Of a DNA stretch of 64,000 bases, positions 11,253 through 64,000 are shown one piece after another. The position numbers and the translations under genes are program-made. A model generated the notes under the pieces. The model saw nothing but the letters and a program-made list of their open reading frames with translations, did not search any database and was not told the DNA's origin. The stretch's first letter is position 1. The number at the start of each line of letters is the position of its first letter. Source of the stretch: an uncultured Planctomycetaceae bacterium (GTDB lineage: Bacteria > Planctomycetota > Planctomycetia > Planctomycetales > Planctomycetaceae); the NCBI GenBank assembly GCA_963976765.1, contig CAXBME010000001.1:186001-250000 (forward strand), in the 5' to 3' direction.

Positions 11253-12349
11253 CTCCGCTCCTCCGCCGGAATCCAATACTGCGTATTCGCGAGCACGCTG
11301 ACCAGATTGAAAAGGCGGACACCGATCTGGAATTGCGGTTGCGCAGCCAGCACTGGCTGTTTTCCCGACATCGAAATGGCCTTCAGAGCCGAGTTCCGAA
11401 ACGAGTTCACCATCAACACGCAACGCGTGCGCAACGTCCCGAAAGTCCGCCGGAAATCCGGGTCTCCCTGTCGTATCGACCTGAGAAGTTATGCGGCTTG
11501 AAGAGAATCTTCGGATCAGTGGAGATAATCATTGATGAACCGCCGGTGTCTTCGCGCTGAACATCGGGATTTGTTCCTACAGCCGGCACGATTTATCACC
11601 AGGCTTTGAGCGTCTGCTGGGACTGCTTGTGTGCCGGCATTCCCTGCACCGATGAAGGTGTAGAGTGTGTGGAGACTCTCCGTAGACTCCCCGGCAACTG
11701 TTCCGTCTTCAGACACGATGGGACATTACGCCATCAACTGGCGAGTTGGCAGGTGGGAGCGGCCAGAGAATCCACCGCGTCGACCAACTGCCGGGAACCG
11801 GAAGTTGTCAGGGATCGTCGAACCCAACTTGTGGAAAGTTTTCGAATCGTTTTTGCACTCACAGGTGGTGATAGCAGGATGAACAGACTTCGGTGCTCAC
11901 TCGCTCGCGGGAATCATGTTTTGAGAGCGTATCTCTCAGTACAGATTGTACTTAGAGGATGGGGCGAGGCGGTGATTCAGACGTTTCGAATTGTCACAAT
12001 GCGAAGGTTGAACCAGATTTCGGATTTGGAGGCTTCAATGCGTCGAGAATGTTTCGGCGAAGTCTCCGCTCGTAGTTGGTTGTTTGCTCAAGTTGTTTTT
12101 TGCTCAGGGGTTACGTCGCGACGAATGGCGATGGTGCCGGCTTTGACAGTGTCGTCGAGATGGTATTCAGATAAGGCTTGCGCGGATTCAGCGCGAACGG
12201 CAACAGCATTTGCGCGAGCAGGGATGTTCGCACGTGAAAACGCAATGATTTCACGGCAGAGCTGAAGTGAGGGGCTGTTTTGATGGGTCGCGTCGCGGCC
12301 TCTCGCACCAAGAGAAATACAGAACCGAGAATTATTCGGGAGATCAGGC

Positions 12350-47380: not shown

Positions 47381-50300
47381 ATGAGTCTGCCGAACCGAAG
47401 CCTCTTTGACATTGAGACTCCAGCGCCCCGAGCGAGGGGCAATTTTGGCCTGGGGCGGTTTCTGTTTCGACGCAGCCGGGCTTCGCGTCGGCGAGGGATG
47501 AGCCGTCACACTGATCGCCAGGCTGTCGCTGCGGTGGGTGAGCGATCAGAGTGCCTTGAGAATCGGTTGATGCTGACCCAGTTTATTGTGGACACGAATC
47601 TAGATGTTGTGAACGGCTCTGATGGGCTGACGAGTCTGCGTGAAGCGATCACAGCAGCCAACAGTAATGCAGGTGCGGATACCATTGATTTTACAGGTAC
47701 CTTTGGGGCGTTCGAGCCAATCGTACTGAGCCTCGGTGAGCTGACGATTACTGAAGGGCTGACGATCAACGGTTCAACGGCGTTCAGTCTTTCAGTGGAG
47801 GTCGATGGGGATGATCTTTCTCGCGTCTTCAACATTGATACGACGGATGCTGTGACTTTCATCGGGGTCGATGTCACCGGCGGGGCTGCAGTTGACGGGG
47901 CAGGCATCTTCAACAACGGCAGTGATCTGACTTATCAGTTCGGAATGATTTCGAATAACAATGCGACTGGAAGCGGCGGCGGAATCTTTAATGCGGCAGG
48001 AACGGTTTCGATCGAGCAGTCGAACATTAACGACAACACCGCTGTCCGAGCTGGCGGTGGAATCGAAGATCAGTCGAATGACGCCAACGCAATTACATTC
48101 ACCAACGGCAATTTGAATGGCAACTCCGCTACAGGTGGTGTCGCCGGGCCGGGTAACGGTGGCGGCCTGCATGTGACCGGTTCGGGGAACGTGACGATCA
48201 CAAATGTCAGCGTCACGGGTAACACAGCCGCCAGCGAAGGTGGCGGGCTGTGGAACGGCACTGGCACGATGACGATCAGCGATACGTCGGGGAACGTGCT
48301 GATCGACGGTAACACGGCCAGTGGTAATGACGCCAATAACGGCGGCGGCGGTATCTTCAATGCTGGCGGAACGGTGCTGATTCAGGACAACGACCCCACC
48401 AACACGATCACGATTTCCAACAACATCGCAGACGGAACATCAGGCAGTGGCGGCGGAATCCTGAACGACGCTGGCGGAACGCTGACGGTCACCGGAGCGA
48501 CGATCTCCGGGAACGCGGCCAACCGTGCGGGCGGCGGGATCGAGAGCACGGCGGGAACGACCAACACACTCACCAGCGTCACGTTGATTGATAACGTTGC
48601 CGGCCGGGCGGGCTCGGCGTCGCCCGGCAACGGTGGTGGACTGCATATCACAGGTAACGGCAATGCTGACATCATGGGAGGGTCAGTGACCGGGAACTTC
48701 GCAGCCTCCGAAGGCGGTGGCTTGTGGAACGGTACCGGGACAATGACCATCGACGGGACGATGATCACCGGCAATGCCGCGGCGGGTAATGGCGCCGATC
48801 AGGGCGGCGGCGGCGTGTTCAATGCAGGCGGTACGCTCGACATCGACAACGCCACGATCAGCAACAACCTGGCCGCAGCGGCGATCACGTTCTCGCTGGA
48901 TGGGAATCAGGTAGTGCCTCCGGTCTCGACCTCGGCTTCTGGCAGCGCGATTGCACAGCTCGATCCGGCGACCGGCACGTTCCGACTGGATCTGTTCGTG
49001 ACAGGAATGGAACTGCCGACAAATCCGGGTGGTCTTCCAGATTTGACGATGGCCAACGTCCATCTGGGGGCTGCTGGAGTCAATGGCCCGGTGATTTTCG
49101 ACCTGCTGGCCCTCGGTTCGTTCGTCCAGGAGGACAATGGACTTCGTTTGATACTGGACGGCGAAGTGTTTCCTGAGGACAGTCTGGCCGATCTTCTGGC
49201 TGGGAACACGTATGTCAACATCCAAAGCGACGACAATATGTCCGGTGAGATCCGCGGCCAGATTATTGTTCCGTCCACGATGGGCAGCGGCGGCGGTATT
49301 CTGAACGACCAGGGAACGCTCACCGTCGATAACTCGACCATTGATGGCAACATCGCCAGCCGAGCTGGCGGCGGTATCGAAACGAACGTCGGCACGACAA
49401 CACTGACGAACGTGACTTTGAGTAACAACGTCGCCGGTCCCGACGGAGCGGCAACACCAGGCAACGGCGGCGGTTTGCACGTCACCGGAGCCGGCGGTGT
49501 GACGATTAATGGCGGAATGGTCACCGGAAACACAGCTGCTGCAGAAGGTGGTGGTTTGTGGAACTCAAGCACCGGCACGATGACGATTCAGGCCGGCGGT
49601 ATGGGCGGGACGCTGATCGACAGCAACACGGCCAACGGTGACGGGGCCGTTCAGGGCGGCGGCGGCATCTTCAATGTGGGCGGCACACTGTCGATCACCG
49701 ACGCAACGATCAGCAACAACGTCTCGACGGCAACGCAGGCCGGTAACGGCGGCGGCGGAATTCTGATCGAAGGCGGAGCGAACAACTCGATCACCGACAC
49801 GACGATCAGCGGCAACACGGCCAACACGTCTGGAACGGCTGACGGCGGAGGAATTCTGCTGACTGGTGGTTCGACTCTGACGATCAGCGGCGGCACGATC
49901 AGCGGCAACAGTGCCAACCGGGCTGGTGGCGGCATCGAGAACAACGCTTCGACCGTCACTTTGACGGATGTCACGCTTGGCGGAGTGATGGTTGCTGACG
50001 GTAACAACGCCGGAGTCAATGGCGGCGGTCTGCATGTCAGCGGAGCGGGCACGACGAACGTCAATGGCGGCACGGTTCAGAACAACGTCGCTGGCCAGGA
50101 AGGTGGCGGTCTGTGGAACGCGACTGGCACGATGACGATCGACGGAACGACGATCAGTGGCAACTCGGCGAACGCCGGCAACAACGGTGGAAATGATCAG
50201 GGCGGCGGCGGTGTGTTCAACATCGGCGGAACGCTGGACATCGACAACGCCACGATCACTGGCAACTTCGCCACCGTGAATGCCGGTAACGGCGGTGGCG

Positions 50301-53300
50301 TGATGACTGTCGGCGGAACGGTCACGATCGACGATTCGACGATCAGCGGAAACAGCGTGGCCCGAGCTGGCGGCGGCATCGAAAACAACAACGGTATGCT
50401 GACGCTGACCGGTGTGATTGTTGGTGGCACGATGGTGTCAGACGGCAACAGTGCTGGAGTCAACGGCGGTGGTCTGCACGTCACGGGAAGCGGAACAACG
50501 AACGTCAACGGCGGTGCCTTCGAGCTAAACACGGCAGCCCAGGAAGGCGGCGGCTTGTGGAACGGTACCGGCACGATGACCATTGACGGAGTGGCTATTC
50601 TTCAGAACGTTGCCAGCGGTAATGGCGCGGACCAGGGCGGCGGCGGCGTGTTCAACGCCGGTGGCGAGGTCATCATCCAGAACGGTACGACGATTTCCAG
50701 GAACGTGGCCAACGGCACATCGGGCAGTGGTGGCGGGATCCTGAATGACGCTGGCGGCACACTGACTGTCTCTGACAGCACGATCGAACTGAACACTGCA
50801 AATCGAGCTGGCGGCGGGATCGAAGATAATTCTGGTCAATTCTCGGTTGTTGAGCTGACGAACGTCACTCTCGACGGCAACAGTGCCGGTGTTGATATCG
50901 GTGTGGTAGTGATGGCTGCTCCCGGAAATGGCGGCGGTCTGCATGTGACTGGTGCTGGAGTCGTCAATATCTTTGACGGTACGGTCAACAATAATGTGGC
51001 GGCAGCCGAAGGCGGCGGACTGTGGAACAACACCGGGCAGATGGACGTTGTCGGTACGACGATCAGTGGTAACACAGCATTCGGTACCGGTGTCGACGAA
51101 GGTGGTGGCGGTATCTTCAACAAAGGCGGGGATTTGGATGTTCAGTCGGCAACGCTCAGCGGCAACACTGCGACCAGCGGATTTGGTGCTGCAATCTTCA
51201 ACGAAGGCGGAACGGTCGCCATCGGCATGACGACGCTTGACGGCGACGTTGCTGGCGGTGACCTGACCGACGACACGTTCGATATTTTCGAAACCAGCGT
51301 CACGATCATCAGTCAGGGAGGTTCTGACACGACGATCGTCTCCGGTGACGCCACCGATGATTCGTTCGTCGTCACGCCAGACACGGCTGGTCTGGGCGCC
51401 ACAGTGACGGTTCAGAACGGCTCGGCCTTCACCATCAACACCGATTCGGAAACGCTGAATCTGCTCGGCGATATCGGCGACGATGATTTTACCGTCGATT
51501 TCGGCAACGCAGTGACGCTGGGTACGGTCACGAATCTCTCCATTGGTGGTGCAGGTGAAACTTCAGCCGACTCGCTGACACTCACAGGCACTGGCTCGTT
51601 TGTGGATGTCACGCAGACGACGACTACGGCAGTCGACGGAAGCTTCAGTCTTAACACTGATAAGATCGTGGTCGACTACAGCAGCATCGAAAGCATCATC
51701 AACAATCTGCTGGAAGGGCTGAGCCTGGCTCAGACTCCAGATCAGGTGATCGGTGCTGGAGCTGGCTCGGTAGATATTCTGATTGCGTCGAGCACGGACG
51801 ATAGTGAGATTCCGGTTCTGACCGTCGGGGCACTGCCAGACTACGCTTCATTCGTTGATAACGGCAACGGGACCGGAGTTCTGACACTGAATCCGGCAAC
51901 CGGCGATGCCTCGACGAATGCAGACATCACGGTCACGGCAACAATCGCCGGCCTGTCTGCTTCGGACACGTTCAACGTGGCTGTCGTCAGCCCGGCTCAG
52001 GCATTCCCGAATAACACGATTTTTGCCGTTAACTCAGCTGGTGGTGCCGTCGGCAACTTCTCGTCCGACAGCAACTTCAACACCGGTTCGACGTTCAGCA
52101 CCGGGGCAGCGATTGATGTCAGCGATTCATCGATCCCCAGCGGTACACCCGCAGGAATCTTCAAGACGACACGTTTTGACTTCAACGGCGGCTCAGAACT
52201 TCAGTACGCCTTCCCGACCGGTGTCGGTAATTTCGAAGTGACTCTGTTCTTTGCCGAAATCTACTCGCCAGTGTTCCGTGCAGGTGGTCGAGTCTTCGAC
52301 GTCAGCATTGAAGGTGTGCTGGAACTTGACGACTTCGATGTCTTCGCTCAGGCCGGAGCCGGCAACAAGGGGATCGCCCGAACCTTCCAGGTCGTCTCGG
52401 ACGGCACGCTTAACATTGACTTCGGACACGTTGTCGAAAACCCAATGGTCATGGGAATTCAGATCGTTGATCTGAATCCGGTTGCCAACGCAGGGCCTCA
52501 GGTTGCATCGGTAGCTCCTGTGGTCAACCTGCTGTCAGGCAATTCGACCACGATCGACGTCAGTGCGACAGACCTGGAAGGTGATTCGATCGCGTTGTCG
52601 GTCACCGGTCTGCCAGAGTTCGCCTCGTTCGTGGACAATGGCAACGGAACAGGAACGATCACAGTTTCGTCGGCTGCGACTGACGAAGGCTTGTTTGGTG
52701 TCACGGTGCAGGCGACATCCGGCACACCAGCTTTGACCGACTCAGCCTCGTTCACGCTGAGTGTCGCACCGTTCGTTCCTCAGCCACTTCCACAGGAAGT
52801 GATCAACATCAACGCTGGCGGCCCGGCACTGCCCGGCGATCCTGGATTCGTGCGGGATGACAACTTCCAGAACGGAGTCGGGCTCGACTTCGGCACGGGA
52901 GCAACGATCGATACCAGCGATGCTTCGATTCCATCGGGAACTCCGGCACAGCTTTTCAATACGGTGACCTTCGATCGTGCTGGCGGAGCGGAACTTCAAC
53001 TCGACATTCCGACTCAGCACACGGGGATTGCTTACGAAGTGACCTTGTACTTTGTCGAAATCTACGGGCCGACCGCTCGTACCGGTGCCCGCGTCTTTGA
53101 TGTCAGCATTGATGGACAGCTTGTCCTGGACAACTTCGACGTCTTCGCCGCCGCCGGGGCGATCAATCGAGGGATCGCCAGAACCTTCCAGATTACGAGC
53201 GATGGAAATGTCGACATCGACTTCGGACACGTGACTGAGAACCCAGCACTCGCTGGTGTCTCGGTCCGTCAGATCGATCAGGTCTTCTCGTCAGCTCCGT

Positions 53301-53302
53301 AA
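47381..53302 (+). CDS. Large (1973 aa) extracellular protein: LExRxLL leader, CSLREA-like cap, 6 beta-helix repeats, inserted CHRD domain, 2x (Ig-like + malectin)
   Basis: ECLENRLML; TSLREAI; NGGGLH(V/I) x6; CHRD signature (QVVPPV.TSASG...H.G.AG.NGPV...YVNI...GEIRGQ); malectin signature (L.F.EIY...RVFDVSI.G...FDV) x2. Confidence 0.92.
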   Translation: MSLPNRSLFDIETPAPRARGNFGLGRFLFRRSRASRRRGMSRHTDRQAVAAVGERSECLENRLMLTQFIVDTNLDVVNGSDGLTSLREAITAANSNAGADTIDFTGTFGAFEPIVLSLGELTITEGLTINGSTAFSLSVEVDGDDLSRVFNIDTTDAVTFIGVDVTGGAAVDGAGIFNNGSDLTYQFGMISNNNATGSGGGIFNAAGTVSIEQSNINDNTAVRAGGGIEDQSNDANAITFTNGNLNGNSATGGVAGPGNGGGLHVTGSGNVTITNVSVTGNTAASEGGGLWNGTGTMTISDTSGNVLIDGNTASGNDANNGGGGIFNAGGTVLIQDNDPTNTITISNNIADGTSGSGGGILNDAGGTLTVTGATISGNAANRAGGGIESTAGTTNTLTSVTLIDNVAGRAGSASPGNGGGLHITGNGNADIMGGSVTGNFAASEGGGLWNGTGTMTIDGTMITGNAAAGNGADQGGGGVFNAGGTLDIDNATISNNLAAAAITFSLDGNQVVPPVSTSASGSAIAQLDPATGTFRLDLFVTGMELPTNPGGLPDLTMANVHLGAAGVNGPVIFDLLALGSFVQEDNGLRLILDGEVFPEDSLADLLAGNTYVNIQSDDNMSGEIRGQIIVPSTMGSGGGILNDQGTLTVDNSTIDGNIASRAGGGIETNVGTTTLTNVTLSNNVAGPDGAATPGNGGGLHVTGAGGVTINGGMVTGNTAAAEGGGLWNSSTGTMTIQAGGMGGTLIDSNTANGDGAVQGGGGIFNVGGTLSITDATISNNVSTATQAGNGGGGILIEGGANNSITDTTISGNTANTSGTADGGGILLTGGSTLTISGGTISGNSANRAGGGIENNASTVTLTDVTLGGVMVADGNNAGVNGGGLHVSGAGTTNVNGGTVQNNVAGQEGGGLWNATGTMTIDGTTISGNSANAGNNGGNDQGGGGVFNIGGTLDIDNATITGNFATVNAGNGGGVMTVGGTVTIDDSTISGNSVARAGGGIENNNGMLTLTGVIVGGTMVSDGNSAGVNGGGLHVTGSGTTNVNGGAFELNTAAQEGGGLWNGTGTMTIDGVAILQNVASGNGADQGGGGVFNAGGEVIIQNGTTISRNVANGTSGSGGGILNDAGGTLTVSDSTIELNTANRAGGGIEDNSGQFSVVELTNVTLDGNSAGVDIGVVVMAAPGNGGGLHVTGAGVVNIFDGTVNNNVAAAEGGGLWNNTGQMDVVGTTISGNTAFGTGVDEGGGGIFNKGGDLDVQSATLSGNTATSGFGAAIFNEGGTVAIGMTTLDGDVAGGDLTDDTFDIFETSVTIISQGGSDTTIVSGDATDDSFVVTPDTAGLGATVTVQNGSAFTINTDSETLNLLGDIGDDDFTVDFGNAVTLGTVTNLSIGGAGETSADSLTLTGTGSFVDVTQTTTTAVDGSFSLNTDKIVVDYSSIESIINNLLEGLSLAQTPDQVIGAGAGSVDILIASSTDDSEIPVLTVGALPDYASFVDNGNGTGVLTLNPATGDASTNADITVTATIAGLSASDTFNVAVVSPAQAFPNNTIFAVNSAGGAVGNFSSDSNFNTGSTFSTGAAIDVSDSSIPSGTPAGIFKTTRFDFNGGSELQYAFPTGVGNFEVTLFFAEIYSPVFRAGGRVFDVSIEGVLELDDFDVFAQAGAGNKGIARTFQVVSDGTLNIDFGHVVENPMVMGIQIVDLNPVANAGPQVASVAPVVNLLSGNSTTIDVSATDLEGDSIALSVTGLPEFASFVDNGNGTGTITVSSAATDEGLFGVTVQATSGTPALTDSASFTLSVAPFVPQPLPQEVININAGGPALPGDPGFVRDDNFQNGVGLDFGTGATIDTSDASIPSGTPAQLFNTVTFDRAGGAELQLDIPTQHTGIAYEVTLYFVEIYGPTARTGARVFDVSIDGQLVLDNFDVFAAAGAINRGIARTFQITSDGNVDIDFGHVTENPALAGVSVRQIDQVFSSAP

Positions 53303-53469: not shown

Positions 53470-56400
53470 TCACGCGTCCTTCAATCGCTCGTCGCGCAGA
53501 CGGAGCACGGCTTCTTTGGTGAAGTCCTGGCTGTCGAACACCAACTGCGTGACGCGTTTGCCTTTGCTTTTCCGTTTTGCCGACCGAATCGCCTTCGTCG
53601 CGTTGATGAAACGTGTGCGACCATCGCTACTGCGGATAATCAACAGTGTTTCCGGCATGCCCTTCGCCGTCCAGTATTCCTCGTAGTGCTTTTTCATCGG
53701 GAATTTTTCGATTCCACTCTTCAGCACTTTGAGGTGTGAGTCACCAGACTTCAGTTGAACGCGGTACGCGACTCCGGTCGCTTTGGCATTGTCATTGCGA
53801 AACTCGATCTCGCCGTCCACTCCTTCGTCGGGTTCCGACACAATCCGATAAATCTGCCCGACAGAGGCGACCAGACTCATAACCTCTCCCACCATCTGTT
53901 GTTCCATCGACGCGTTTGAAATCCGCTCGCTCGCATTTCGCTTTGCTTCATTAACGCTCTGCACGGCTCTGGCACTCATCTGTCGTTCGAGAGCATCCTT
54001 CAGATTCATCATCCCCGGCTCTTTGTCGGGAGGACAGAATCCACAGCGAAGCTTTGGCCAGCCATTTTCAATCGCATGGTCAACCTGCTCGCGGGGCGCC
54101 TCGCGTTTGCACTTCGGACAAAAGTAGTCGCGCAACCGTTGCAGTCCGTCGGCCTTTCGTTCCAGGTGCTCCCATGCGAATTTGTGGATTGTGGCCTGCA
54201 CGTCTTGAGACATCTTCGCGTCGAAGTACAGTTCCAGCTCTCCGCGGTCGCCCTCTTCGACCAGCGTCAGCGCCGCCAGTCGGCCCTCGTGAGTCTTGAA
54301 ATCCACGCCGCGTCGATACAGCCTCGGTTCCGAAGTGAACAACCCGCTGTAGTACAGGCGGACGACCAGCGTGCAGTAGATCTCTTCCAGCGGTCCGGTG
54401 AAGCGGAAGGTCACTGTTTTGCCGGGACGAGGCGGAGCTTCCTCTCGCGGGAGCAGCGCGTAGTACGGAAACACCAGCATCGTGCCTTCGTTGGTCTCCT
54501 GCTTCCACGCCAGTGCCCGGCGCAGGAACAATTCGACCAGTGCGGGCAGCAGTTGTTCCTCATCTTCGTGGCTCAGCCGGTCCGTCCCGTCGTCGTTCGG
54601 CAGCTTTCCGGGGGCGATCATCGACATCGGGATGTAGCCGAGCTGATTGTCGGCTTCGGCTGCCAGCTTCACGAGCGTGGACGCGTAGCTGTTGATCCAG
54701 CTCGGCTGCAGAACGACCAGCCTGCCATACGGCAGTTGATACAGCACGCCCTCGGTCCCCAGCAGGTTGGTCACGGCGAGCAGATCGTCTTCCGTAAACT
54801 TCAACTTTGGTGAGGTCTTTTTCACACGGGCCAGCAGTTGCTCAGGCGTTACGATCACGCCACCATCATCTGTCGCGTCATCGCGTAGCGAAAGAATTGC
54901 GTCCTTCAGAGGCGGAAAGGTCTCGGGCGTGCTCCGCCACTCGATGTTTTCCCAGGGCAACAGCTTCGCGATCAACTCACGCAGTTCTTTCACGCCGTTT
55001 TTTGTTTTGAGCTTTGCTTTGGTGATCAGTGGGCCGTGCATTCCTCGTTTTCGAGCCCATTGTTCGACCTCGCCGAGTGTCAACCGCAGGCCCTTCCGGT
55101 CGCAGCGAGCGGCCACCAGAACTCCCTGAACGATCTCTGCGGTGGCCACCTTGCTCAACGCACTCTGCCAGTAACTCACCGTATCAAACAGGTCCTTGTC
55201 CTGCGGATCAAAGACCAGCAAAGCCAGCGAGGTCTGCTCCATGAAAAGCTGATGAGTCAGTCGGTAATCCGGTTGCCCGGCCAGATCCCAGAGCCAGACT
55301 TCGTGTTCGACTTCGGAATCTTCCAGGTCGGATTTCGGCAGGTCCGACAGTCGCTGGATCTCCATTCCGTGAGTCGACTCGGTTTTTTTCCAGCGATCGT
55401 GCCACAGCCGCAGCGCCAGCCCGCTCTTACCCACGCCGGAATCGCCGAGCAGGACGACCTTGGCATTCTTGTAGCCGCGTTTCCGCGACGTCGCCGCCCG
55501 GTCGAGGATCGCCTGGGGAATATCCCAGACGCGGAGAGTATTGCCTTGCCAGTCGACGGAGGCGATGCGGCGGGCGTCAGGAGTGATGGCAACGCCGAGG
55601 ACGTCGTTTGTGTGTCCGCGAAGGATGGCGAGGCACTGGCCGGTCTCCACGCCCCAGAGGCGAACGGTCCTGTCGCCCGACCCGGAAACGCAGAATCGAC
55701 CGTCCGGTGTCACTGCTACGGCGTAGACATCACGACTGTGCCCTTCGAAGGCGGCGACGCGGTTGCCACTTTCGAGATCCCATTGCGCAACCACGCCATC
55801 TTCTGTGCCGGCGAAGGCAAAGCGACCGTTGGCTGTTACGCTGATCTGGCAAGCATCCGACACGTTTTCCTTGGCGATGATGAGTGAAGCGCGGCCTTTT
55901 CCGGACCAGACCACGAGGCCCTCATTGCGGCAGGCCCCGACGATCCGCGAGCCATCGGCGTCAGCGGCAAGACCGTAGCTTTCGGACCAGTTGAACGGCA
56001 ATTGGCAGCTGGCGATGCATGTGTCGTCAGACGCGGCACTAGTATCGTTCCCCTGCCACCGCTGAAGCTTGCGGACATCCCAGCGTCGTAGAAACTCGTC
56101 CGTCCCGATGCTGTGGAGTTCCAACCGATCCTGTCCCTGAGTCTGACGCTGGCGTTCGCCATCTCCGCTGAAGGCCAGACTTCCAACATCCGTTTTGCGC
56201 GAATGAGCCTGTACGATCGTGATGATCGCGTTCGAATCTGGACAAGAATCCGTGTCACCTAGCTTCGGAGGAGCGGTCGCGGCCGACTGCGGGTCCAGCA
56301 ACAGCATCCGGCCCAATCGATCGCCCGCCGCCGCCAACAAGCCATCCGCCGATACGGCCACTCCCCAGAACGCCGTACCATCTTCGGATTTCGCGAGGAC

Positions 56401-56619
56401 CACGCCCGTGTCGACTTCAGCGCCCTGTTCCGACACCAGATCCCACTTCCGAACCGTCCCGTCTTCGCTGGTCGTGAGTGCAAAACGCCCATCCGCTGGC
56501 ATCGCCACGCGCCAGACCCAGTTTTCATGCCCTTTAAACACCCGGACCCGCACGTCCTTTTCCGTGGCGGGTTCCGGCGTTGCTGCCTGGGCTTTGTTGC
56601 TCGATTTCTTCGTGACCAT
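53470..56619 (-). CDS. Roco protein: WD40 repeats - Roc GTPase - COR - Zn ribbon - DUF4365 (restriction-endonuclease-like) domain
   Basis: GH...WD repeats; G1 GDSGVGKS, G2 STHG, G3 WDLAGQ, G4-like ARCD; CPKC/CGFC; DEGVDGEIE...VQLKSG. Confidence 0.88.
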   Translation of the reverse strand: MVTKKSSNKAQAATPEPATEKDVRVRVFKGHENWVWRVAMPADGRFALTTSEDGTVRKWDLVSEQGAEVDTGVVLAKSEDGTAFWGVAVSADGLLAAAGDRLGRMLLLDPQSAATAPPKLGDTDSCPDSNAIITIVQAHSRKTDVGSLAFSGDGERQRQTQGQDRLELHSIGTDEFLRRWDVRKLQRWQGNDTSAASDDTCIASCQLPFNWSESYGLAADADGSRIVGACRNEGLVVWSGKGRASLIIAKENVSDACQISVTANGRFAFAGTEDGVVAQWDLESGNRVAAFEGHSRDVYAVAVTPDGRFCVSGSGDRTVRLWGVETGQCLAILRGHTNDVLGVAITPDARRIASVDWQGNTLRVWDIPQAILDRAATSRKRGYKNAKVVLLGDSGVGKSGLALRLWHDRWKKTESTHGMEIQRLSDLPKSDLEDSEVEHEVWLWDLAGQPDYRLTHQLFMEQTSLALLVFDPQDKDLFDTVSYWQSALSKVATAEIVQGVLVAARCDRKGLRLTLGEVEQWARKRGMHGPLITKAKLKTKNGVKELRELIAKLLPWENIEWRSTPETFPPLKDAILSLRDDATDDGGVIVTPEQLLARVKKTSPKLKFTEDDLLAVTNLLGTEGVLYQLPYGRLVVLQPSWINSYASTLVKLAAEADNQLGYIPMSMIAPGKLPNDDGTDRLSHEDEEQLLPALVELFLRRALAWKQETNEGTMLVFPYYALLPREEAPPRPGKTVTFRFTGPLEEIYCTLVVRLYYSGLFTSEPRLYRRGVDFKTHEGRLAALTLVEEGDRGELELYFDAKMSQDVQATIHKFAWEHLERKADGLQRLRDYFCPKCKREAPREQVDHAIENGWPKLRCGFCPPDKEPGMMNLKDALERQMSARAVQSVNEAKRNASERISNASMEQQMVGEVMSLVASVGQIYRIVSEPDEGVDGEIEFRNDNAKATGVAYRVQLKSGDSHLKVLKSGIEKFPMKKHYEEYWTAKGMPETLLIIRSSDGRTRFINATKAIRSAKRKSKGKRVTQLVFDSQDFTKEAVLRLRDERLKDA

Positions 56620-56681: not shown

Positions 56682-58871
56682 CTACCGATCGCCGTAGACG
56701 GGTGGTTTCCAGTCTTTCGGCAGGCGGCCTTGAGGGCGGACGCCGTGGGCGGTGGCGGGAATCGGATGGTCTGACGGTTTCAGCAGTGGCAGATTGTCGG
56801 GCAGGTGTTTGATTCTGAAATCTTTGTACTGAATCGTCATGGCCGGGCCGACGTGGACCTGCACGGCGAGCACTCCTTCCAGTGCACGACCTTTCTCATC
56901 AAGGTCGATCAGGTCTGCGGTCATGTGACCATCGATCCAATGCTGATGGTGGTTTCCCTGAACCAGCACGCGGAAGTCGTGCCACTCGTCGGCGGGGAAC
57001 TCTTTGACGGGCATCTCCTCAATCACCCACGGCTGACCGTCGGTGTCGACGATCACCTTTTCGCCGGTGTGCGACAGAATCCGTCGGCCCTTTTCCTCGT
57101 AGAGCATGCCGTTGTAGTTCGGGTTGCCGGCTACAACGTCGCACTGATAGCCGGTCACGACGTCCAGGCCGAGATCCGGTCGCGACGTGCCTCGGTACTG
57201 AATGCCGCTGTTGCCGCCAGCCGTCACTTTGACTTTGACTCGCAGATCGAAGTTGCGAATCGTCGAATGCGTCCACGTAATGAACCGGTTCATCTTGAGC
57301 GAACCGTCCGTCACGCCGGTCAGAGCACCGTTTTTGACCGACCAGTATTTCGAATCGCCCGTCCAGCCTCGCAGCGACTTCCCGTCGAAAACTCTTACGA
57401 AGCCGTCCTTGTCTGGACGAGTTCCGACTAACGCCGAGATCTCCGGATGGGGAACCGTCGACGCCGTAAACGGAGCTTTCATCGGGACCAGCGGCCCGCC
57501 CAGTTCGTTGACTTGCGCCGTGGTTCGTTCCCGCATCGCCGTCAAAGTGTCGGCATGACTCGGGTCATCGGCCAGGTTGACCAGTTCGTCGGGGTCGTTC
57601 TTGAGGTCGTGCAGAAACTCACGCCCTCCGTGATCCACGTAGCGGACGTACTTGAACCGTTCGTTGCGAACGCCTTCGAAGGCCGGAATCCGATTTCGAA
57701 CGGCAAAGTGCTCATGGAAAGATTCCGTCCGCCAGTCCGCAGGCTTCTCGGCAGACACGATCGGTTGCAGGCTGTGTCCCTGGTAGCGTTCAGGAATTTT
57801 TGCTCCCGCCCAGTCAAGAAACGTCGCGGGAAGGTCCAGATTCAGGGCGATGGCGTCGCTGACTTTGCCCTTTTCGTCAGCCGGTACGCGAGGATCAGCA
57901 ACGATCAAGGGCACTCGCAGCGACTCTTCGAAATGCGACCACTTTCCAGCGAGACCTCGATTGCCCATGTAATAACCGTTGTCCGCTGAGTAGACGATAA
58001 TGGTGTTCTCGGCCAGGCCCGCTTCTTCCAGAGCCGCCATGAAGCGGCCAATCGCTCCGTCAATTCCGCTGACCATGCGGTAGTAGGCTCGGATGTTCGT
58101 CTGATATTTTTCGTCCGTGTTCCATCGCCAGAAGAATCGTTCGCGGTTGATGGTCGTCTTCAGAAAGTCTGGCAGCGCGTCGAAGATGGCCGGATCGTTC
58201 AAGCGAGGCGGCGCGATCTGCACATCGTCGTACATGCCGTCGACCGCTCGCGGCCAGGCAAAGTGACCAATCCCCGGACGTCGATCGCCGTCTTCCGCAT
58301 GGCACGCGTTGAACCACATATTCAATGCAAACGGCTTGTCCTTTGGCTGCGATTTGACGAAGTCGATGCCTCGATCAACGATGACTTCTGTTTCATGCCG
58401 CAGGCTGCCGTCTGGCTGTTTTTTGTAAAACGGATTTCGACCGATCGCTTCGAACTGGTCGAAATGATCCGCCTGCCGATAGCCCTTTGGCATTTTCGCA
58501 TGCCACTTTCCGAAGTAGCCGGTTCGGTAGCCATTTTCCCGCAGGATGTCGGAATACAGAGTCGCCACAGCATCCGGCCTGGCCTGTTCCCGATCCCCGA
58601 CCATTCCGTAACTGCGACCGGTCATCCCCGTCAGGATTGTCGTGCGGCTGACCCAGCAGATCGAATGGCTTACGAATGCGTTGCTGAAACGAGTTCCCCG
58701 TTGAGCCAGCGCGTCGATGTTCGGCGTCTTGATCACATCGTTGCCGTAGCAACCCAGTGTGCTTGTGGTCTGATCATCGGCAAAGAAGAAAACGATGTTC
58801 GGCTTCGCGGCAAAGACATCCGTCGCCAGCCCAATGACCAGCAACGACAGAATGACAGGAATTCGATTCAT
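56682..58871 (-). CDS. Secreted sulfatase fused to a DUF1080 (3-keto-disaccharide hydrolase-like) domain
   Basis: Signal peptide, KPNIVFFFADD, CWVSR, GKWH, ADNG; C-terminal FDGK.L.GW, NSGIQYR, GYQCD, VQVH. Confidence 0.92.
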   Translation of the reverse strand: MNRIPVILSLLVIGLATDVFAAKPNIVFFFADDQTTSTLGCYGNDVIKTPNIDALAQRGTRFSNAFVSHSICWVSRTTILTGMTGRSYGMVGDREQARPDAVATLYSDILRENGYRTGYFGKWHAKMPKGYRQADHFDQFEAIGRNPFYKKQPDGSLRHETEVIVDRGIDFVKSQPKDKPFALNMWFNACHAEDGDRRPGIGHFAWPRAVDGMYDDVQIAPPRLNDPAIFDALPDFLKTTINRERFFWRWNTDEKYQTNIRAYYRMVSGIDGAIGRFMAALEEAGLAENTIIVYSADNGYYMGNRGLAGKWSHFEESLRVPLIVADPRVPADEKGKVSDAIALNLDLPATFLDWAGAKIPERYQGHSLQPIVSAEKPADWRTESFHEHFAVRNRIPAFEGVRNERFKYVRYVDHGGREFLHDLKNDPDELVNLADDPSHADTLTAMRERTTAQVNELGGPLVPMKAPFTASTVPHPEISALVGTRPDKDGFVRVFDGKSLRGWTGDSKYWSVKNGALTGVTDGSLKMNRFITWTHSTIRNFDLRVKVKVTAGGNSGIQYRGTSRPDLGLDVVTGYQCDVVAGNPNYNGMLYEEKGRRILSHTGEKVIVDTDGQPWVIEEMPVKEFPADEWHDFRVLVQGNHHQHWIDGHMTADLIDLDEKGRALEGVLAVQVHVGPAMTIQYKDFRIKHLPDNLPLLKPSDHPIPATAHGVRPQGRLPKDWKPPVYGDR

Positions 58872-59015
58872 GGTGTGATCAGCTTTCGAATACAGACCTT
58901 CGAGATATCCAAACAGGCAAACTAAGCAGAATCATAATCAGATTCACAATCCCGAGTCACAGCCTGGCGGGATTGCTCAGTGTCAAACAAGCAACATCAG
59001 GGCAAAGGTTCCCGG

Positions 59016-60940
59016 TCACCTGCCAGCAAGGGCCTGCTCACGCCAGCGCCGCACGCTCATGACATCAAATCGCTTGCCGACAAACTCAATTTGCCTCACC
59101 TGTTTCGTGCCGTTGCCTGTGACTTCTTTGAGATGGTCGCGTATCTCCATCCAGCGAATCTCACCTTTTGAGTTTCGGATGACAAGGATCACGGGGAAAG
59201 CCTGATCCATCCAGAAGCGCACCTGTCTCTGGTCAAAACTCTTAAAGATTTCTGCCCCGTCCGTCTTCCGAACGGTCAGGTACGAGTCCCCGGATTTCAG
59301 TTGCAGATGCACTTTCTGGCCAGTGGCTTCACCAGCGTCGTCGCGAAACGTGACGTCCATGTCGATGCCCTGATCGGCCTGTGTTATTTCCTGACAGAGC
59401 TGTGCGGCCAGCGCAACCGTTGAGGTGACTTCTCCGACAAGAACACGTTCCTTGCTGGTATTGTCGAGCACGATTCTGACCGAGTCCTGAAGATCCTGCA
59501 CTCGCTGCTTGATGGCCGGATCGGCAAAGAGTTCTTCCAGCTCGTCCCACAGAGGAATCCGTTTTTCAGAATCGTCGCATTCGACGCAGGGGATGTCTTT
59601 CTTTCCCTCGTTCAGCTTCCGCATTGCGACCTGTCGATTCCCCACCGGCGTCCCGCAATGCGGACAGACGTAATGCCGCAGGCGGACGACGTCGTTGGCA
59701 CCGTAAAGGAGGTGCTCGTGGACGTACTTGCTGAAGATGATCCGCTTGCCAACGGGGACGTCCTGACAAAAGTACACTTCCAGTTCGCCCTCGCCTTCGG
59801 CACGCCGAGTCAGCTTGACTCCAAGTTGTCGCCCCTCGTGCGTCGTGAAGTCGGCGGCGTATCGCCAGAGTTCGTCATGGTTGAACTCTTTCGTGTGATG
59901 CAGTTTGACGACCAGCGTGGCGTAGACTTCATCGAGGAATCCATTGAACTGGTAGCTGACCACCACAGCCGGTGCGCTGATCAATTCTGGGCGCTCCCGC
60001 CGGTAATAGCTGGGGAAGATCAGCAGGATCTCGCCAGACTCGGTCATGTGTCGGATACACAGACCTCGTTCGACGAGAATCTGATGCATGGCCAGCAGCA
60101 CAAACTGTTCTTCATCGGGCGGGAGCCGCTCAATCGACGAATGATACGTGAGGTCTCCCCGCAATACTCGCTTTTCCGAAATGCAGCCACGGTCGTGTTC
60201 ATCCTCCCTGATCGTCTGAATCACCGCCTGACCGTACGCATTGATCCGTTCCGGCTGAAGCAGCACCCAGCTTCCAAATTCAAGTTCCCAGACAACTCCC
60301 GGTCCCGCCAGCAGCCCGACCACCGCCTTCAGCTCCGCATCGGTGAAACGCTCATGTGAGCCGACGGCGCCAGGCGCGGGCCTGCCAGTGTGGACGTCCT
60401 CTCCGCTATCGCCCGAGGCTAGCGCCTGCGGCTCACGATTACTCATCCGCAGCGCCAGCACTTCGCGCAGCTCATTGAACCGCATCAGCACGCGGCCTTC
60501 GTCCTTCAGCTTGATGATCTCATCTTTCAGCCGTTTGAAGAGCACTGGCGAGCTTCGCCACGGAATGTTCTCCCACTTGATCCCGTCAATGATGGCCTGC
60601 CTGAGCTCCGCACACCCCTCATTCGCCTTAGCGCTGGTTTCGACATACGCCTCATAGCCACGTTCATCAACAAAATCGTCGATCTGCTTTCGAGCTACGC
60701 GCAGCCCGCCGGCATCGCAGCGCCCGGCGACCAGCAGCTTAGACATTTTGTCCTTGTCATCTTTGCCTTTGCCGGCCCGGCTGAGATCGCGGTCCCACTG
60801 CCCCAGCGTCTCGAAGACATCGTCCTTCTGCGGATCGAAGACCAGCGCTGCCACCTGTGTCTGATCCATGTAGAGCTGATGAATCAGCCGCTGATCGGCT
60901 TGCATCCCTGAGTCCCACTTGCCCACGCCTGTGGATCCAC
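59016..60940 (-). pseudogene. 5'-truncated, internally deleted Roc-COR-Zn ribbon-DUF4365 paralog (frame still open; could be expressed from an internal ATG)
   Basis: GSTGVGK abuts WDSGMQADQRLIHQL directly; ETSAK, CPHC/CVEC, DQGIDMD...LQLKSG; colinear with the C-terminal part of 53470-56619. Confidence 0.7.
60356..60436. repeat. 81-bp REP-like palindrome inside the coding frame
   Basis: gtgagccgacggcgccaggcgcgggc vs gcccgaggctagcgcctgcggctcac (21/26 complementary). Confidence 0.85.
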
Positions 60941-61074
60941 GCGAGTGGCTGTAGCGGAATTCTCCATAGCGCAGATTTCTGACGGCCGACTTGGTGGCGC
61001 GACACGCAACTGTCGTAAGCCGATTCCTCGCAATCGATAATTGCATCGAGACTGCCGTAGGTGCTTGATTGTCG

Positions 61075-62625
61075 TCAGGAATAATCACCAGTATACGGCA
61101 GAGCAATCGCCCGAGATTTTCCGTACGAAATAATGTCGTCATATGTGAAGAGCTTCGCTGGTCCCATCTGCTTCTCAATCTCGATCCGATCTTCGCGATG
61201 CGTCACCTCTTCCGTGCGTCCAATCACGACGATCATCTCTGGGCGAAATGCCTGAAATCCGTGTTCGGCCATAAACGCTTTTCGATGGGCCGCGTTATCG
61301 AAGTAATGCTCATACTTCCTGAGCTGCGCAACGGCCTTCGTGATCTCGCTTGAGACTCGGAGATATGGGTGCCTCGCCGTGATGCGAGCATTCGGCAACT
61401 TCAGGTCCAAAATGTCGAATCCCAGGCCACCAGGACGTTCCAGAATAAAGTCCGGAATCAGCTCTGAATTATCTTCATCTCGAAGGCAGATATGAGGGTG
61501 AGCCCGTGCGTATCCGAGTGATTCGAGGAATTCAGGGTGTTGATTCAAGAAACTTTGAATATGACGTTCCCTCGTCGAGTCTCGCGAAATCAGGTCCTCG
61601 AATGCTGCAATCGTCGTAATCGGCAGCATCGAAGTTGGACGAATCGCTTGAAGTGAGATTGGCTGGTGGCCATACCGTGTTGTAGGAGTCTGCACGGTTA
61701 CAGTATCCCGGTACGTGTACTGCCCGAGATGTACTCTGCCGTCACGCGCGAACAATGCGACGCCCGGTAAGTCTCGCTCAGGTGAAACTACGGATGCGAG
61801 ATCTAGGCAGGAATCGACGAACTTCACGTTACCACCCGCTTGGGCAAATATTGCCGGGCCAAAAAGTAGTGGGCTGCAACGATTAAGAACTTGGACACAT
61901 AGTTCGGGAGGGTCAGTCAATATCCTTCGCTTCGTGAACCAGCAGTTGACAGCGGCAAGCGCGAACTCAAGTTCGGCGATTGAAATGTCCGGGTAATCGA
62001 TCCCAAATCGTCGATCAATGGCGTAATCTTCGGCTTTGGAGATCTCGGTCCGTCTTGATCGAAGCATTCTTAGCAACTCACCGGCGGAGTCAAGTTCAGG
62101 GTGCATCGTGGATACCAAATAGACGATGAGTTCGCACATGCCATTGGCCAATTCTTCGTCAAGACGGCCATTCGGCGGTGGACCGGCGATTAATTCGTGC
62201 GGAAACACCAATTCACTTGGGACGCGATCACGATCTTGCGGCGAGATCGCCGCACGAAGCAGATCTGCGGTCTCAATCGTACGACTGGTTCCGGAAATTT
62301 CGTGCCAAAACGTCGACGATTCTTCAAAGAGTGAATCAAACGGATTCAACTCTTCGAATCGCAATGGCGACCCAACGCTCTCCCTTGCCAGTCGCCTAAG
62401 CTCCTTTGGATGACGTGATGATTTCTCAAGAACATCAACCGTATACGAGCCAGAATAAAGAAGCCCGATTAGGAGTGAGTCGGTATCACCGACGATGTCT
62501 GACGGAGAACGTGCGATTGATTCAGTCAGAGACGACAATGCCTGCGGAGTGGCGGTAAGCCCGTGGAGGCCAAGTTCCACTGATAGCTTCTTGCTCAAGG
62601 TGTGTTTTGTCAGTTGGTTTTCCAT
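61075..62625 (-). CDS. Shedu-like (SduA/DUF4263) anti-phage nuclease with a Clp-N-like N-terminal region
   Basis: ERHIQSFLNQHPEFL, IPDF, LDLKLP, SSEITKAVAQLRKY, VVIGR, TYDDI. Confidence 0.8.
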   Translation of the reverse strand: MENQLTKHTLSKKLSVELGLHGLTATPQALSSLTESIARSPSDIVGDTDSLLIGLLYSGSYTVDVLEKSSRHPKELRRLARESVGSPLRFEELNPFDSLFEESSTFWHEISGTSRTIETADLLRAAISPQDRDRVPSELVFPHELIAGPPPNGRLDEELANGMCELIVYLVSTMHPELDSAGELLRMLRSRRTEISKAEDYAIDRRFGIDYPDISIAELEFALAAVNCWFTKRRILTDPPELCVQVLNRCSPLLFGPAIFAQAGGNVKFVDSCLDLASVVSPERDLPGVALFARDGRVHLGQYTYRDTVTVQTPTTRYGHQPISLQAIRPTSMLPITTIAAFEDLISRDSTRERHIQSFLNQHPEFLESLGYARAHPHICLRDEDNSELIPDFILERPGGLGFDILDLKLPNARITARHPYLRVSSEITKAVAQLRKYEHYFDNAAHRKAFMAEHGFQAFRPEMIVVIGRTEEVTHREDRIEIEKQMGPAKLFTYDDIISYGKSRAIALPYTGDYS

Positions 62626-62695
62626 TCTCTGTCGCTCAGTTCTGCGTAGGTTCTGCGAATGTATGAATTGTGAATTATGCGAAGGGCAACTCAGG

Positions 62696-63064
62696 TCAGT
62701 CGAATTTGAATTCCGACGGATGAGTCGTCTTGTTTTTCAGTACGTCGTCGAGCCTGAGTGGAATGAATCGTCGGTTGTGGTTGAGTGGATCTTTGAAGCG
62801 GAAGGTGTGGCTCTCCAACTGCGGCCAGTCGGCCGCGAGCGCCTCAGCGGACAGGCAGAGCACCAGCACGCGGGAGTGCTCCAGTCCGTCCTCGATCTTC
62901 GCCGGGATGCTGTCGCCCGGCTGGATCTCCCACTCATCAAACCACACCCGCACCCCGTCCGACTTCAGCCGGTTCGCGATGTCTCGGACAGTGTCTTTGT
63001 CTTTCGAGCTATGACTGAGGAAGACGTCCCACTGGAATTCGGAATCGGCAGAAGCATTGCTCAT
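62696..63064 (-). CDS. TIR_2 domain, apparently C-terminally truncated
   Basis: DVFLSHSSKDK, VWFDEWEI.PGDSI, W.QLE, RRFIPLRLDD, then a 15-aa tail that does not look TIR-like. Confidence 0.85.
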   Translation of the reverse strand: MSNASADSEFQWDVFLSHSSKDKDTVRDIANRLKSDGVRVWFDEWEIQPGDSIPAKIEDGLEHSRVLVLCLSAEALAADWPQLESHTFRFKDPLNHNRRFIPLRLDDVLKNKTTHPSEFKFD

Positions 63065-63069
63065 AAGCG

Positions 63070-63171
63070 GGCCACGAAAAAGCACGAAGAGGCACACAAA
63101 AAGAAGGGGACCGACGGACAGTGTAGAGACTCGTCCCTGACTATTGCGACTTCTCGTGCCTTCTTGTGGCC
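63070..63171. repeat. Imperfect inverted repeat of GCCAC/GCAC(G)AA units directly upstream of the TIR gene
   Basis: ggccacgaaaaagcacgaagag vs cttctcgtgccttcttgtggcc. Confidence 0.75.
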
Positions 63172-63282
63172 ATTCTTTGTTCGACTGGCGAGATTCGCAG
63201 AGTCCGGGTGGGCGAGGTTGAACGCCATCTCGAAGTTGAGTAAACCAACGGCTTGGCGCAGGTTGACGCAGTCAATCTGTCA

Positions 63283-64000
63283 TCAGCCATTGAGGCCAAA
63301 GGCGTCGCGGAGTTCGGCGATGACGTTTTCGGGCATTGCGGAGACGTCTCCGATGGCTCGTGCGTTGATGACAGCTTCGGCGGTGGACTCAAGAACTTCC
63401 AGGCGATCGAACGCGTCAAGCACGCTGGAGCCGGTCACCAGCACTCCGTCGTTTTCAAGAATTGCTGCAGGCGACGCGGCGGAAATTGAGTCGGCGATGC
63501 TGCCGCCGTTCCGGTACTGAACTCCGTAAGGCACGCGTTCGACGTCGCGCAGAAAGACGTAGCTTTCGGGAATGGTCCGAGCGTCAAACGCAGTATCAGT
63601 CACACTGAACGCCGTCGCGTTGACCGGATGAGCAAATGCGATTGCTTGAACGTGCGGGTGCTTTCGGTAGATCGCCTGGTGAGCGAAGACGGCTCGGCTG
63701 GCCTTTTTACCGGCCTCGCGGCGGTCGCCGTCGACCAGAACCAGATCATCAACACTGAGTCGTTCGCGATCCTGCTGCGTCGGAGTGATCACAAACGAGT
63801 CGTCACTCAGTCGCGCGGAGAAACTGCCTTCCGTGCTGATCAGCAATCGCTGCCGGCATCCCCGTCGAATGAATTCGCAAAGTTGCCGCCGCAGTTCCAT
63901 TTCTTCTGCCGTCGCATCTTTCGGTTTGTGTGATTTCAGAGCGACGCTGCGGCCGAGAGCCTGTTCAAGCTGTTGATCGGTCAGGTACCGAACCGCTCCG
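63283..64000 (-). CDS. Class II aldolase/adducin family protein (C-terminal domain visible); 5' end lies outside the window
   Basis: [34 protein letters not shown]; frame is open to the window edge. Confidence 0.85.

Follow-up and report, generated by a model that had tools for sequence, protein, structure and literature searches.

Proteins of the form LRR-AP-GTPase-COR, ending in one of at least 24 C-terminal effectors, were proposed as counter-invader systems by Kaur, Iyer, Burroughs and Aravind (eLife 2021, PMC8195603), in a prediction made without experiments, and a 2026 preprint repeats that AP-GTPases can stand in for STAND switches. The gene described here lies at positions 53470 to 56619 (minus strand) of a 64,000-nucleotide stretch (the window) of contig CAXBME010000001.1 from an uncultured Planctomycetaceae bacterium (GCA_963976765.1). 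Its 1049-residue product resembles the Kaur class (PMC8195603) in its fast-evolving N-terminal repeats, AP-GTPase (Roc) domain, predicted COR domain, variable C-terminal effector and several paralogs per genome, but its sensor is a WD40 propeller whereas the main text of that paper has LRR sensors. The supplement (PMC8195603) holds TIR+BetaPropeller+AP-GTPase proteins (two with 'DUF4365 domain-containing' deflines), a BetaPropeller+AP-GTPase+PrimaseZnR+TIR type and three LRR+AP-GTPase+COR+REase7 proteins; 'BetaPropeller+AP-GTPase' stands there in 41 places, none of them labelled COR or REase (restriction endonuclease), and none is a TIR-less propeller-GTPase-nuclease. An earlier note on this DNA had put forward a WD40 sensor, Roc/COR switch and nuclease effector as a GTP-driven analogue of Avs/NLR-like immunity. 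As a concept this was not new, as AP-GTPase(Roc)+COR counter-invader proteins, propeller and REase variants included, are already in Kaur et al. (PMC8195603). Its statement that the architecture had no experimental description has held, in that a full-text literature search (subscription journals largely uncovered) found no test of a WD40-Roc-COR-nuclease protein, with phage or otherwise. The general idea is therefore in the literature already; what appears to go beyond the published account (PMC8195603) is the diversification of the ligand face, measured against controls, and the swapping of nuclease alleles, and these raise the odds of an immune role, which we consider likely. The protein is a good candidate for an immune receptor that consists of a single protein, a class known to date only from computer prediction, and it probably recognizes a foreign protein and triggers lethal, non-specific cleavage of DNA.

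Other described systems share parts of this design. C. tepidum Roco (3dpu, 6hlu, 8r4b) and LRRK1/LRRK2 have the same order of Roc then COR and are the top fold matches of residues 556-883, at about 10-13% identity, which a sequence profile misses; unlike them the target has WD40 repeats in place of LRR at its N-terminus, a zinc ribbon that probably ends COR-B, a non-canonical G4 motif and a nuclease as output. With SPARDA (DREN-APAZ short Argonaute; 9qcc, 9qbq, 9jt2) it shares the nuclease domain and its catalytic positions, but it has neither Argonaute nor APAZ, its nuclease is C-terminal and its sensor would be a protein-binding propeller rather than a nucleic-acid guide. The combination of repeat sensor, NTPase switch and effector is that of Avs and the bacterial NLR-like STAND receptors and of the fungal HET-D/E proteins (NACHT-WD40), and the WD40 of the target subfamily varies at the same repeat positions as HET-D/E, but the switch is a Ras-like GTPase rather than a STAND ATPase and the repeats in the subfamily are not near-identical. 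In STAND receptors the order of the domains is the reverse of that found here, where the sensor comes first. A 2026 survey of bacterial STAND receptors (PMC13581612) makes no mention of GTPase, Roc or DUF4365. The gasdermin-activating Roc-COR-CHAT protease of Runella is likewise a bacterial Roc-COR protein with a death-executing enzyme, of which the effector activity and toxicity have been shown, but it is a two-gene system with protease output (bioRxiv 10.1101/2021.06.07.447441).

The open reading frame (ORF) is uninterrupted, without an internal stop. A Pfam scan of its product gave WD40, Roc (residues 387-507, E 1e-19) and DUF4365 (residues 915-1043, E 5e-12, above cut-off). In an AlphaFold model built with 107 sequences a propeller of seven blades is followed by a G domain and two lobes like those of COR; after these come a Cys4 ribbon, a helix of 44 residues and, last, an alpha/beta domain. 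The parts are as follows (pLDDT, predicted local distance difference test; pTM, predicted template modelling score; VIA, the second of two fold searches described below).

53470..56619, minus strand, intact gene for the WD40-Roc-COR-Zn ribbon-helix-DREN nuclease protein (P0001; AlphaFold mean pLDDT 88.2, pTM 0.76)
55519..56550, minus strand, seven-blade WD40 propeller, residues 24-367, hypervariable on its top (ligand) face and with long private insertions in its loops (from Pfam, the strand pattern of the model and variability tests)
55471..55518, minus strand, linker helix between sensor and Roc, residues 368-383 (helical at 369-377 in the model)
54955..55470, minus strand, Roc (AP-GTPase) G domain, residues 384-555, G1-G3 canonical, G4 non-canonical
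54130..54954, minus strand, predicted COR-A and first part of COR-B, residues 556-830, too divergent for the Pfam COR models
53995..54129, minus strand, Cys4 zinc ribbon, residues 831-875 (from cysteine conservation and the VIA range)
53905..53994, minus strand, long helix, residues 876-919, continuing into the first helix of the nuclease (from the model; position uncertain, pLDDT below 50 at 886-900)
53485..53904, minus strand, DUF4365/DREN PD-(D/E)xK-type nuclease, residues 906-1045

The sensor-switch-effector layout is thus supported by Pfam domains and fold matches, as the earlier note had proposed, and the features it had read from the sequence (WD40 repeats, G1/G2/G3, two CxxC pairs and a C-terminal D-x-G-x-D...Q-L-K) were all found again by Pfam and by conservation, with the key residues kept in all 57 full-length members of its subfamily and Ser or Thr at G2. 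No STAND (NACHT/AP-ATPase) domain was found in the protein, the NTPase being the Ras-like Roc. With NCBIfam and PADLOC the whole protein fits no system model and gives partial domain matches only, of which the best is the REase part of Argonaute-associated proteins; Argonaute and APAZ domains were found neither in the target nor among the neighbours scanned. A homologue search identified 674 proteins among 7995 candidates scored, and the division into two subfamilies rests on 120 of these. Subfamily A, to which the target belongs, has 83 rows besides the query among the matches listed (54-80% identical, mostly WD40-Roc-COR-DREN, with Acidobacteria and Verrucomicrobia among the named sources), and subfamily B has 36 (about 40% identical, mostly with an extra N-terminal TIR). 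Residue invariance was counted in 57 full-length members of subfamily A, chosen from its 84 rows with fragments left out. GTPase and nuclease motifs are intact, and diversification is focused on the ligand face of the propeller and the N-terminal half of the nuclease.

The propeller was scored at 21 top-face positions, three per blade, assigned by hand in what we take to be the standard WD40 register. Mean entropy in subfamily A is 3.11 bits at these positions, against 1.72 at 32 positions in bottom-face loops and 1.24 at the other 269, and the top face supplies 17 of the 30 most variable among the 962 positions of the alignment. In 22 non-overlapping close pairs (7-21% core divergence) the residues differ in 326 of 442 top-face cells (74%), compared with 37% on the bottom face, 27% in the rest of the propeller and 14% in the core, the excess being absent in two of the pairs. 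For a repeat of the test the register was automated, with GH presumably at repeat positions 8-9. The position set was then an external one, the repeat positions of fungal HET-D/E that are under positive selection (high dN/dS, the ratio of non-synonymous to synonymous substitution rates; PMC12222747), and mean entropy in the subfamily A propeller was 2.61 at these positions and 1.26 elsewhere (p 2e-8, although the p-values of these tests are overstated because the sequences are related). The controls (best 30 loci each) were two planctomycete WD40 families that are inherited vertically and occur in 148 and 174 of 201 genomes of the family: in the first the top face is conserved (0.38 against 0.76) and in the second, of which only four blades were registered, there is no difference (0.92 against 0.81, p 0.28). 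With background divergence matched at about 26%, top-face differences amount to 63% in subfamily A and to 13% and 32% in the controls. Internal repeat identity has a median of 39% in the target subfamily as against 66% in the TIR-bearing one. At DNA level the relatives are at most 80% identical, too far apart for codon-level dN/dS on the propeller. In brown-algal Roco genes the repeats are described as being under diversifying selection (PMC11378527). The pattern of variability, taken with its controls, supports a putative role in immunity.

The C-terminal domain, for which the earlier note had predicted a nuclease fold, matches the DREN domain of SPARDA both in sequence (9qbq, phmmer E 3e-4) and in fold (9qcc, Foldseek E 2.5e-7, root-mean-square deviation (rmsd) 3.5 over 149 columns). 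D931, D935, Q955 and K957 align with E37, D41, Q62 and K64 of XauSPARDA, and each is kept in 57/57 full-length members; mutation of the XauSPARDA residues lowers or abolishes activity (bioRxiv 2025.04.08.647717), and the TmuRE equivalents of Q62 and K64 are likewise catalytic (PMC10810196). In 89 more distant DREN domains the four columns hold D in 63 (E in 8), D in 83, Q in 70 and K in 63; these column counts replaced a strict motif pattern, which undercounts the sites (54/89). Isolated DREN is described as an inactive monomer that becomes a non-specific DNase once tetramerized in SPARDA (PMC12205087; bioRxiv 2025.04.08.647717), the tetramer interface in NbaSPARDA being formed by the first helix and the hairpin (PMC12205087). 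In the target subfamily the same segment (residues 906-960) occurs as three allele types, represented by 42, 9 and 6 of the 57 members. Every type forms one group in a tree of residues 906-960, a result that is partly circular because the labels derive from this segment, and on the Roc-COR tree the types need 12 changes, against a shuffled mean of 14.2, with monophyly rejected for types II and III (approximately unbiased test, p 3e-100 and 1e-71; quick, unrooted trees). In comparison with congener G513 synonymous sites are saturated in the segment; outside it they reach only 0.36-0.63, with dN/dS at about 0.1, indicating purifying selection on the core. The simplest reading is that the catalytic half of the nuclease has been exchanged between lineages by recombination.

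In the Roc domain the motifs are present at residues 392-399 (G1), T416 (G2) and 445-449 (G3); G392, G397 and K398 of G1 and D445, G448 and Q449 of G3 are each kept in 57/57 members, while at G2 38 members have S and 19 have T. The canonical G4 motif is N/T-K-x-D; here it reads A/G-R-C-D, with the guanine-specifying Asp kept and R-C-D in 57/57. From the model, the linker helix appears to stand where the alpha0 helix of C. tepidum Roco sits (its role there as given in PMC11052575). For the region behind Roc a second model, of residues 556-1049 only, was used in the Foldseek and VIA searches, a search with the full-length model having been dropped as uninformative since WD40 matches swamped the list. 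Foldseek placed C. tepidum Roc-COR first (3dpu, E 1.9e-10; 6hlu, E 5.5e-10) and LRRK1/2 next, and an independent VIA search ranked the COR domain 3dpt first (Z 13.6, rmsd 9.1, 283 aligned). Pfam gave no COR match in the target, nor was COR one of the 25 families (of 42) listed for an alignment of 34 relatives, a profile search of the region against the PDB gave zinc-finger look-alikes only, and hhalign against the canonical LRR-Roc-COR protein of the same genome gave a probability of 0.7%. Of the Roc-COR module that the earlier note had named, Roc therefore stands by Pfam, and a COR domain directly after it is recognized in the model by fold alone, the sequence profiles being negative. The ribbon cysteines (834, 837, 859 and 862) are each invariant in 57/57 members. 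The VIA alignment to COR (model 13-328 with 3dpt 629-940) spans the ribbon, and the range ends therefore suggest that this is probably a zinc-stapled end of COR-B and not a separate module.

Beyond the anatomy, every step of a mechanism is one that we infer. The earlier note had let ligand binding control a dimerization that activates the DNase. An activating dimer is doubtful because DREN needs a tetramer and because C. tepidum Roco, a dimer without nucleotide, is a monomer with GTP, its COR-B rotating by about 30 degrees (PMC11052575); homodimer prediction for residues 556-1049 scored 0.13 against a mark of 0.42, which counts neither for nor against a dimer. As DREN assembles as a tetramer, at least four chains would be needed, in a dimer of dimers or a filament, and we therefore propose a silent dimer that reassembles to at least a tetramer. 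The resting protein, nucleotide-free or GDP-bound, would probably be a Roc/COR-B dimer like that of C. tepidum Roco, stopping the nuclease domains from meeting productively. Capture of a foreign protein, whose source would most likely be a phage or another mobile element, by the top face of the propeller would be passed on by the linker helix to Roc, with GTP loading and rotation of COR-B; the long helix would then release the DREN domains, which would form a tetramer and cut DNA without sequence specificity. The infected cell would be killed or arrested by degradation of its DNA, the Roco GTPase filling the switch role that STAND ATPases have in Avs/NLR. This order of events, from silent dimer to GTP-loaded tetramer, is itself rather doubtful. 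Only tentatively, the family might be seen as the first bacterial GTPase-switched pattern-recognition receptors, with a propeller shaped by an arms race, an LRRK2-type cycle turning a silent dimer into a higher-order assembly with a DREN tetramer, and three nuclease alleles that set subunit co-assembly or evasion of invader inhibitors.

The family is large and its distribution patchy. A COR-ribbon profile found 1104 clusters at 50% identity (E up to 1e-30), and in the best 150 of these the C-terminal effector is DREN in 81, TIR in 43 and another domain in 16 (several resembling class III cyclases by eye), 10 being short; the effector thus appears to be interchanged on a constant Roc-COR core. 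In one relative, P0081, the subfamily A core carries a TIR and a short helical tail in place of the nuclease. Relatives were found in 3/401 genomes across the phylum and, with three candidates scored per genome, in 34/398 genomes of the family. Subfamily A is in three other family genomes, with an in-frame stop in two of the three copies. No relative was found among GenBank phages, none of 27 pattern hits in viral contigs was confirmed, and on plasmids only distant relatives are found, on eight. The genome of the window carries several Roco paralogs with different sensors and effectors, including two broken TIR...DREN copies, one within the window and one listed here.

G000:C16:54651-57872, intact paralog, WD40-Roc-COR-ribbon-TIR
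G000:C1:417710-420991, intact paralog, canonical LRR-Roc-COR-TIR with Pfam COR-A and COR-B matches
G000:C34:53895-55179, second broken TIR-WD40-Roc-COR-DREN copy

In the C34 copy the TIR and the C-terminal third are fused in different frames, the break falling at about residue 96 of the TIR, almost as in the window copy. Patchy distribution, frequent breakage and paralogs with different sensors and effectors may be taken as supporting an immune role.

The earlier note had also cited a TIR gene, a Shedu-like gene and a paralog within 7 kb in support of defence. DUF1559 genes lie near the target, as fits a planctomycete host. The genes upstream of the target are as follows (GC3, GC content at third codon positions).

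56682..58871, minus strand, Sulfatase-DUF1080-type gene, a conserved housekeeping neighbour (in 4/7 other genomes of the genus)
58890..63289, no strand assigned, 4.4-kb block of TIR piece, Shedu-like ORF and Roc-COR-DREN piece, which congeners G514, G515 and G516 lack between sulfatase and aldolase
59016..60917, minus strand, C-terminal piece of a broken TIR-WD40-Roc-COR-ZnR-DREN paralog, starting at the G3 region, without P-loop and G2
61075..62625, minus strand, Shedu-like ORF with SduA_C nuclease at residues 351-498 (GC 0.516, GC3 0.527, lower)
62696..63064, minus strand, truncated TIR domain (TIR_2 E 7e-27, profile 1-93 of 122), N-terminal piece of the broken paralog

All three neighbours exist, but by tblastn residues 3-98 of subfamily B match the TIR ORF at about 59% and residues ~468-1059 the Roc/DUF4365 piece at about 42% identity, so that TIR and paralog are evidently two ends of one broken TIR-WD40-Roc-COR-DREN gene, in which the Shedu-like ORF occupies the place of the missing WD40 and P-loop. 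As two of the three are fragments of a single gene, they fail as independent support for a defence role. The Shedu-like ORF matches SduA_C in Pfam (E 1.3e-12, above cut-off) and SduA in PADLOC (E 2e-19), its nuclease activity being predicted only; its N-terminal 336 residues have no Pfam match, and the 5' end of the long ORF assigned to the Roc fragment overlaps with it. Searches of 26 loci and of four further ones gave no SduA match, and a conserved TIR/Shedu-like/truncated Roc arrangement was rejected, the look-alike in G565 being a different frameshifted gene. Mis-assembly is unlikely, as contigs from runs X1 and X2 (one perhaps the source sample) bridge both junctions without differences; run X4 has no cover at 58937-63268, which proves nothing alone. 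The target gene was not found after the sulfatase in G514, G516 and G510, nor after the adhesin in G514.

For neighbourhoods outside Planctomycetota, 37 metagenome loci were available; L014 was dropped as a duplicate of L011, and L001 and L013, with one neighbour each, were left out; PADLOC matches to generic domains (ABC ATPase, Ser/Thr kinase, trypsin, patatin, helix-turn-helix) were not scored as defence. Defence association of homologs, which the earlier note would have expected, is seen mainly in the more distant relatives: at 11/21 of their loci defence or mobile genes stand alongside, such as integrases, transposases, AbiTii, restriction-modification or toxin-antitoxin genes, a description and not an enrichment. 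Among the nine subfamily A loci with flanks, six sit among housekeeping genes and one (L086) adjoins an integrase and a primase, in an integrated element.

Several points weigh against an immune receptor of the kind favoured here. A defence-type neighbour stands at only two of those nine loci, again a description rather than an enrichment (L008, with a subtilase and an Avs1a/LmuA-like hydrolase; L012, with a type IV REase), and the 'island' of the window itself is, as it now reads, one broken gene and one insertion. The manual top-face positions were chosen after the entropy table had been inspected, the automated register recovered only partial blades (four in the second control), and top-face variability is a protein-level measure, with which relaxed constraint would also be formally compatible. 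The COR fold match has a high rmsd (about 9 Å), and nucleotide specificity is not assured because G4 is non-canonical. The Runella Roc-COR-CHAT protease, the one Roc-COR effector protein that has been put to the test in a defence setting, was among 12 gasdermin systems reported without phage restriction in E. coli (bioRxiv 10.1101/2021.06.07.447441). The immune role proposed earlier gains support from the hypervariability of the ligand face, with its controls, and from effector swapping.

Among other explanations the best placed, though improbable, is a receptor for non-self proteins of competing or non-kin cells in planctomycete aggregates, similar to HET-D/E, with the nuclease executing suicide. 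The variable positions do coincide with those selected in fungal allorecognition receptors, the class has been described in conflict systems of bacteria with a multicellular habit, and close relatives are mostly outside defence islands; but no conserved partner or ligand gene stands beside the nine subfamily A loci examined, an absence that weighs against the favoured receptor as well, and the wider family adjoins mobile or defence genes, as seen above. Somewhat less probable again is that the gene is a selfish or addictive element, or that it came in horizontally and is now in decay, bringing this host no present benefit. The two broken paralogs and the stops in family copies would fit such decay, as would a run X4 contig from a related strain with an internally deleted copy of the target gene at the same site, but the target copy itself is intact with all catalytic and zinc residues kept, no antitoxin or mobility gene adjoins it in the window, and variation targeted to one face of the sensor is unexpected from mere decay. 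Least probable is a signalling or stress GTPase with a C-terminal domain that binds or nicks DNA non-lethally and a propeller varying by drift, for although the gene stands alone among housekeeping genes, its core is under purifying selection and most Roco proteins have no known function (PMC11378527), the housekeeping WD40 control keeps its top face conserved, the gene is absent from most congeners and often broken, and TIR and other conflict effectors replace the nuclease.

If the immune receptor with a GTPase switch is correct, bacterial Roco proteins would gain a biological function and the Roco switch a direct enzymatic read-out. For LRRK2, which is linked to Parkinson's disease, these proteins serve as the main structural models, and most Roco proteins have no assigned function (PMC11378527). 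As a single gene whose Roco product has a predicted lethal and easily assayed nuclease output, the target makes a compact test of whether Roco GTPases are immune switches parallel to the STAND/NLR ATPases, and of the nucleotide or oligomeric state in which Roc-COR is active. Screens based on defence islands would miss the protein, whose gene is usually outside them.

Some loci of relatives have further features. In L008 (6437-9676) the subtilase and metallo-beta-lactamase-like genes, the latter with the Avs1a/LmuA-like match, lie directly upstream of the subfamily A gene on the same strand, a layout resembling an Avs1 operon with Roco replacing STAND. L028 (986-8784) has a tandem pair of Roco genes, one with an N-terminal AAA_35 (STAND-like) domain and TIR instead of the propeller, adjoining a ParA-like gene and a TIR gene, and in L029 (2-14121) another tandem pair is followed by genes for a NucS-like protein, for type IIG restriction-modification and for MukFEB. 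L016 encodes at 11168-17059 a large protein matched by Pfam models of the middle domains of Tc-toxin B subunits, near AbiTii, an integrase and a TIR-WD40-Roc-DREN gene with a long C-terminal extension of no assigned kind. In the window itself, a 1973-residue beta-helix/CHRD/malectin adhesin-like protein is encoded at 47381-53302, and a 6448-residue ORF lies at 12350-31696, the first 2550 residues of which, those scanned, show beta-helix and FCCH.

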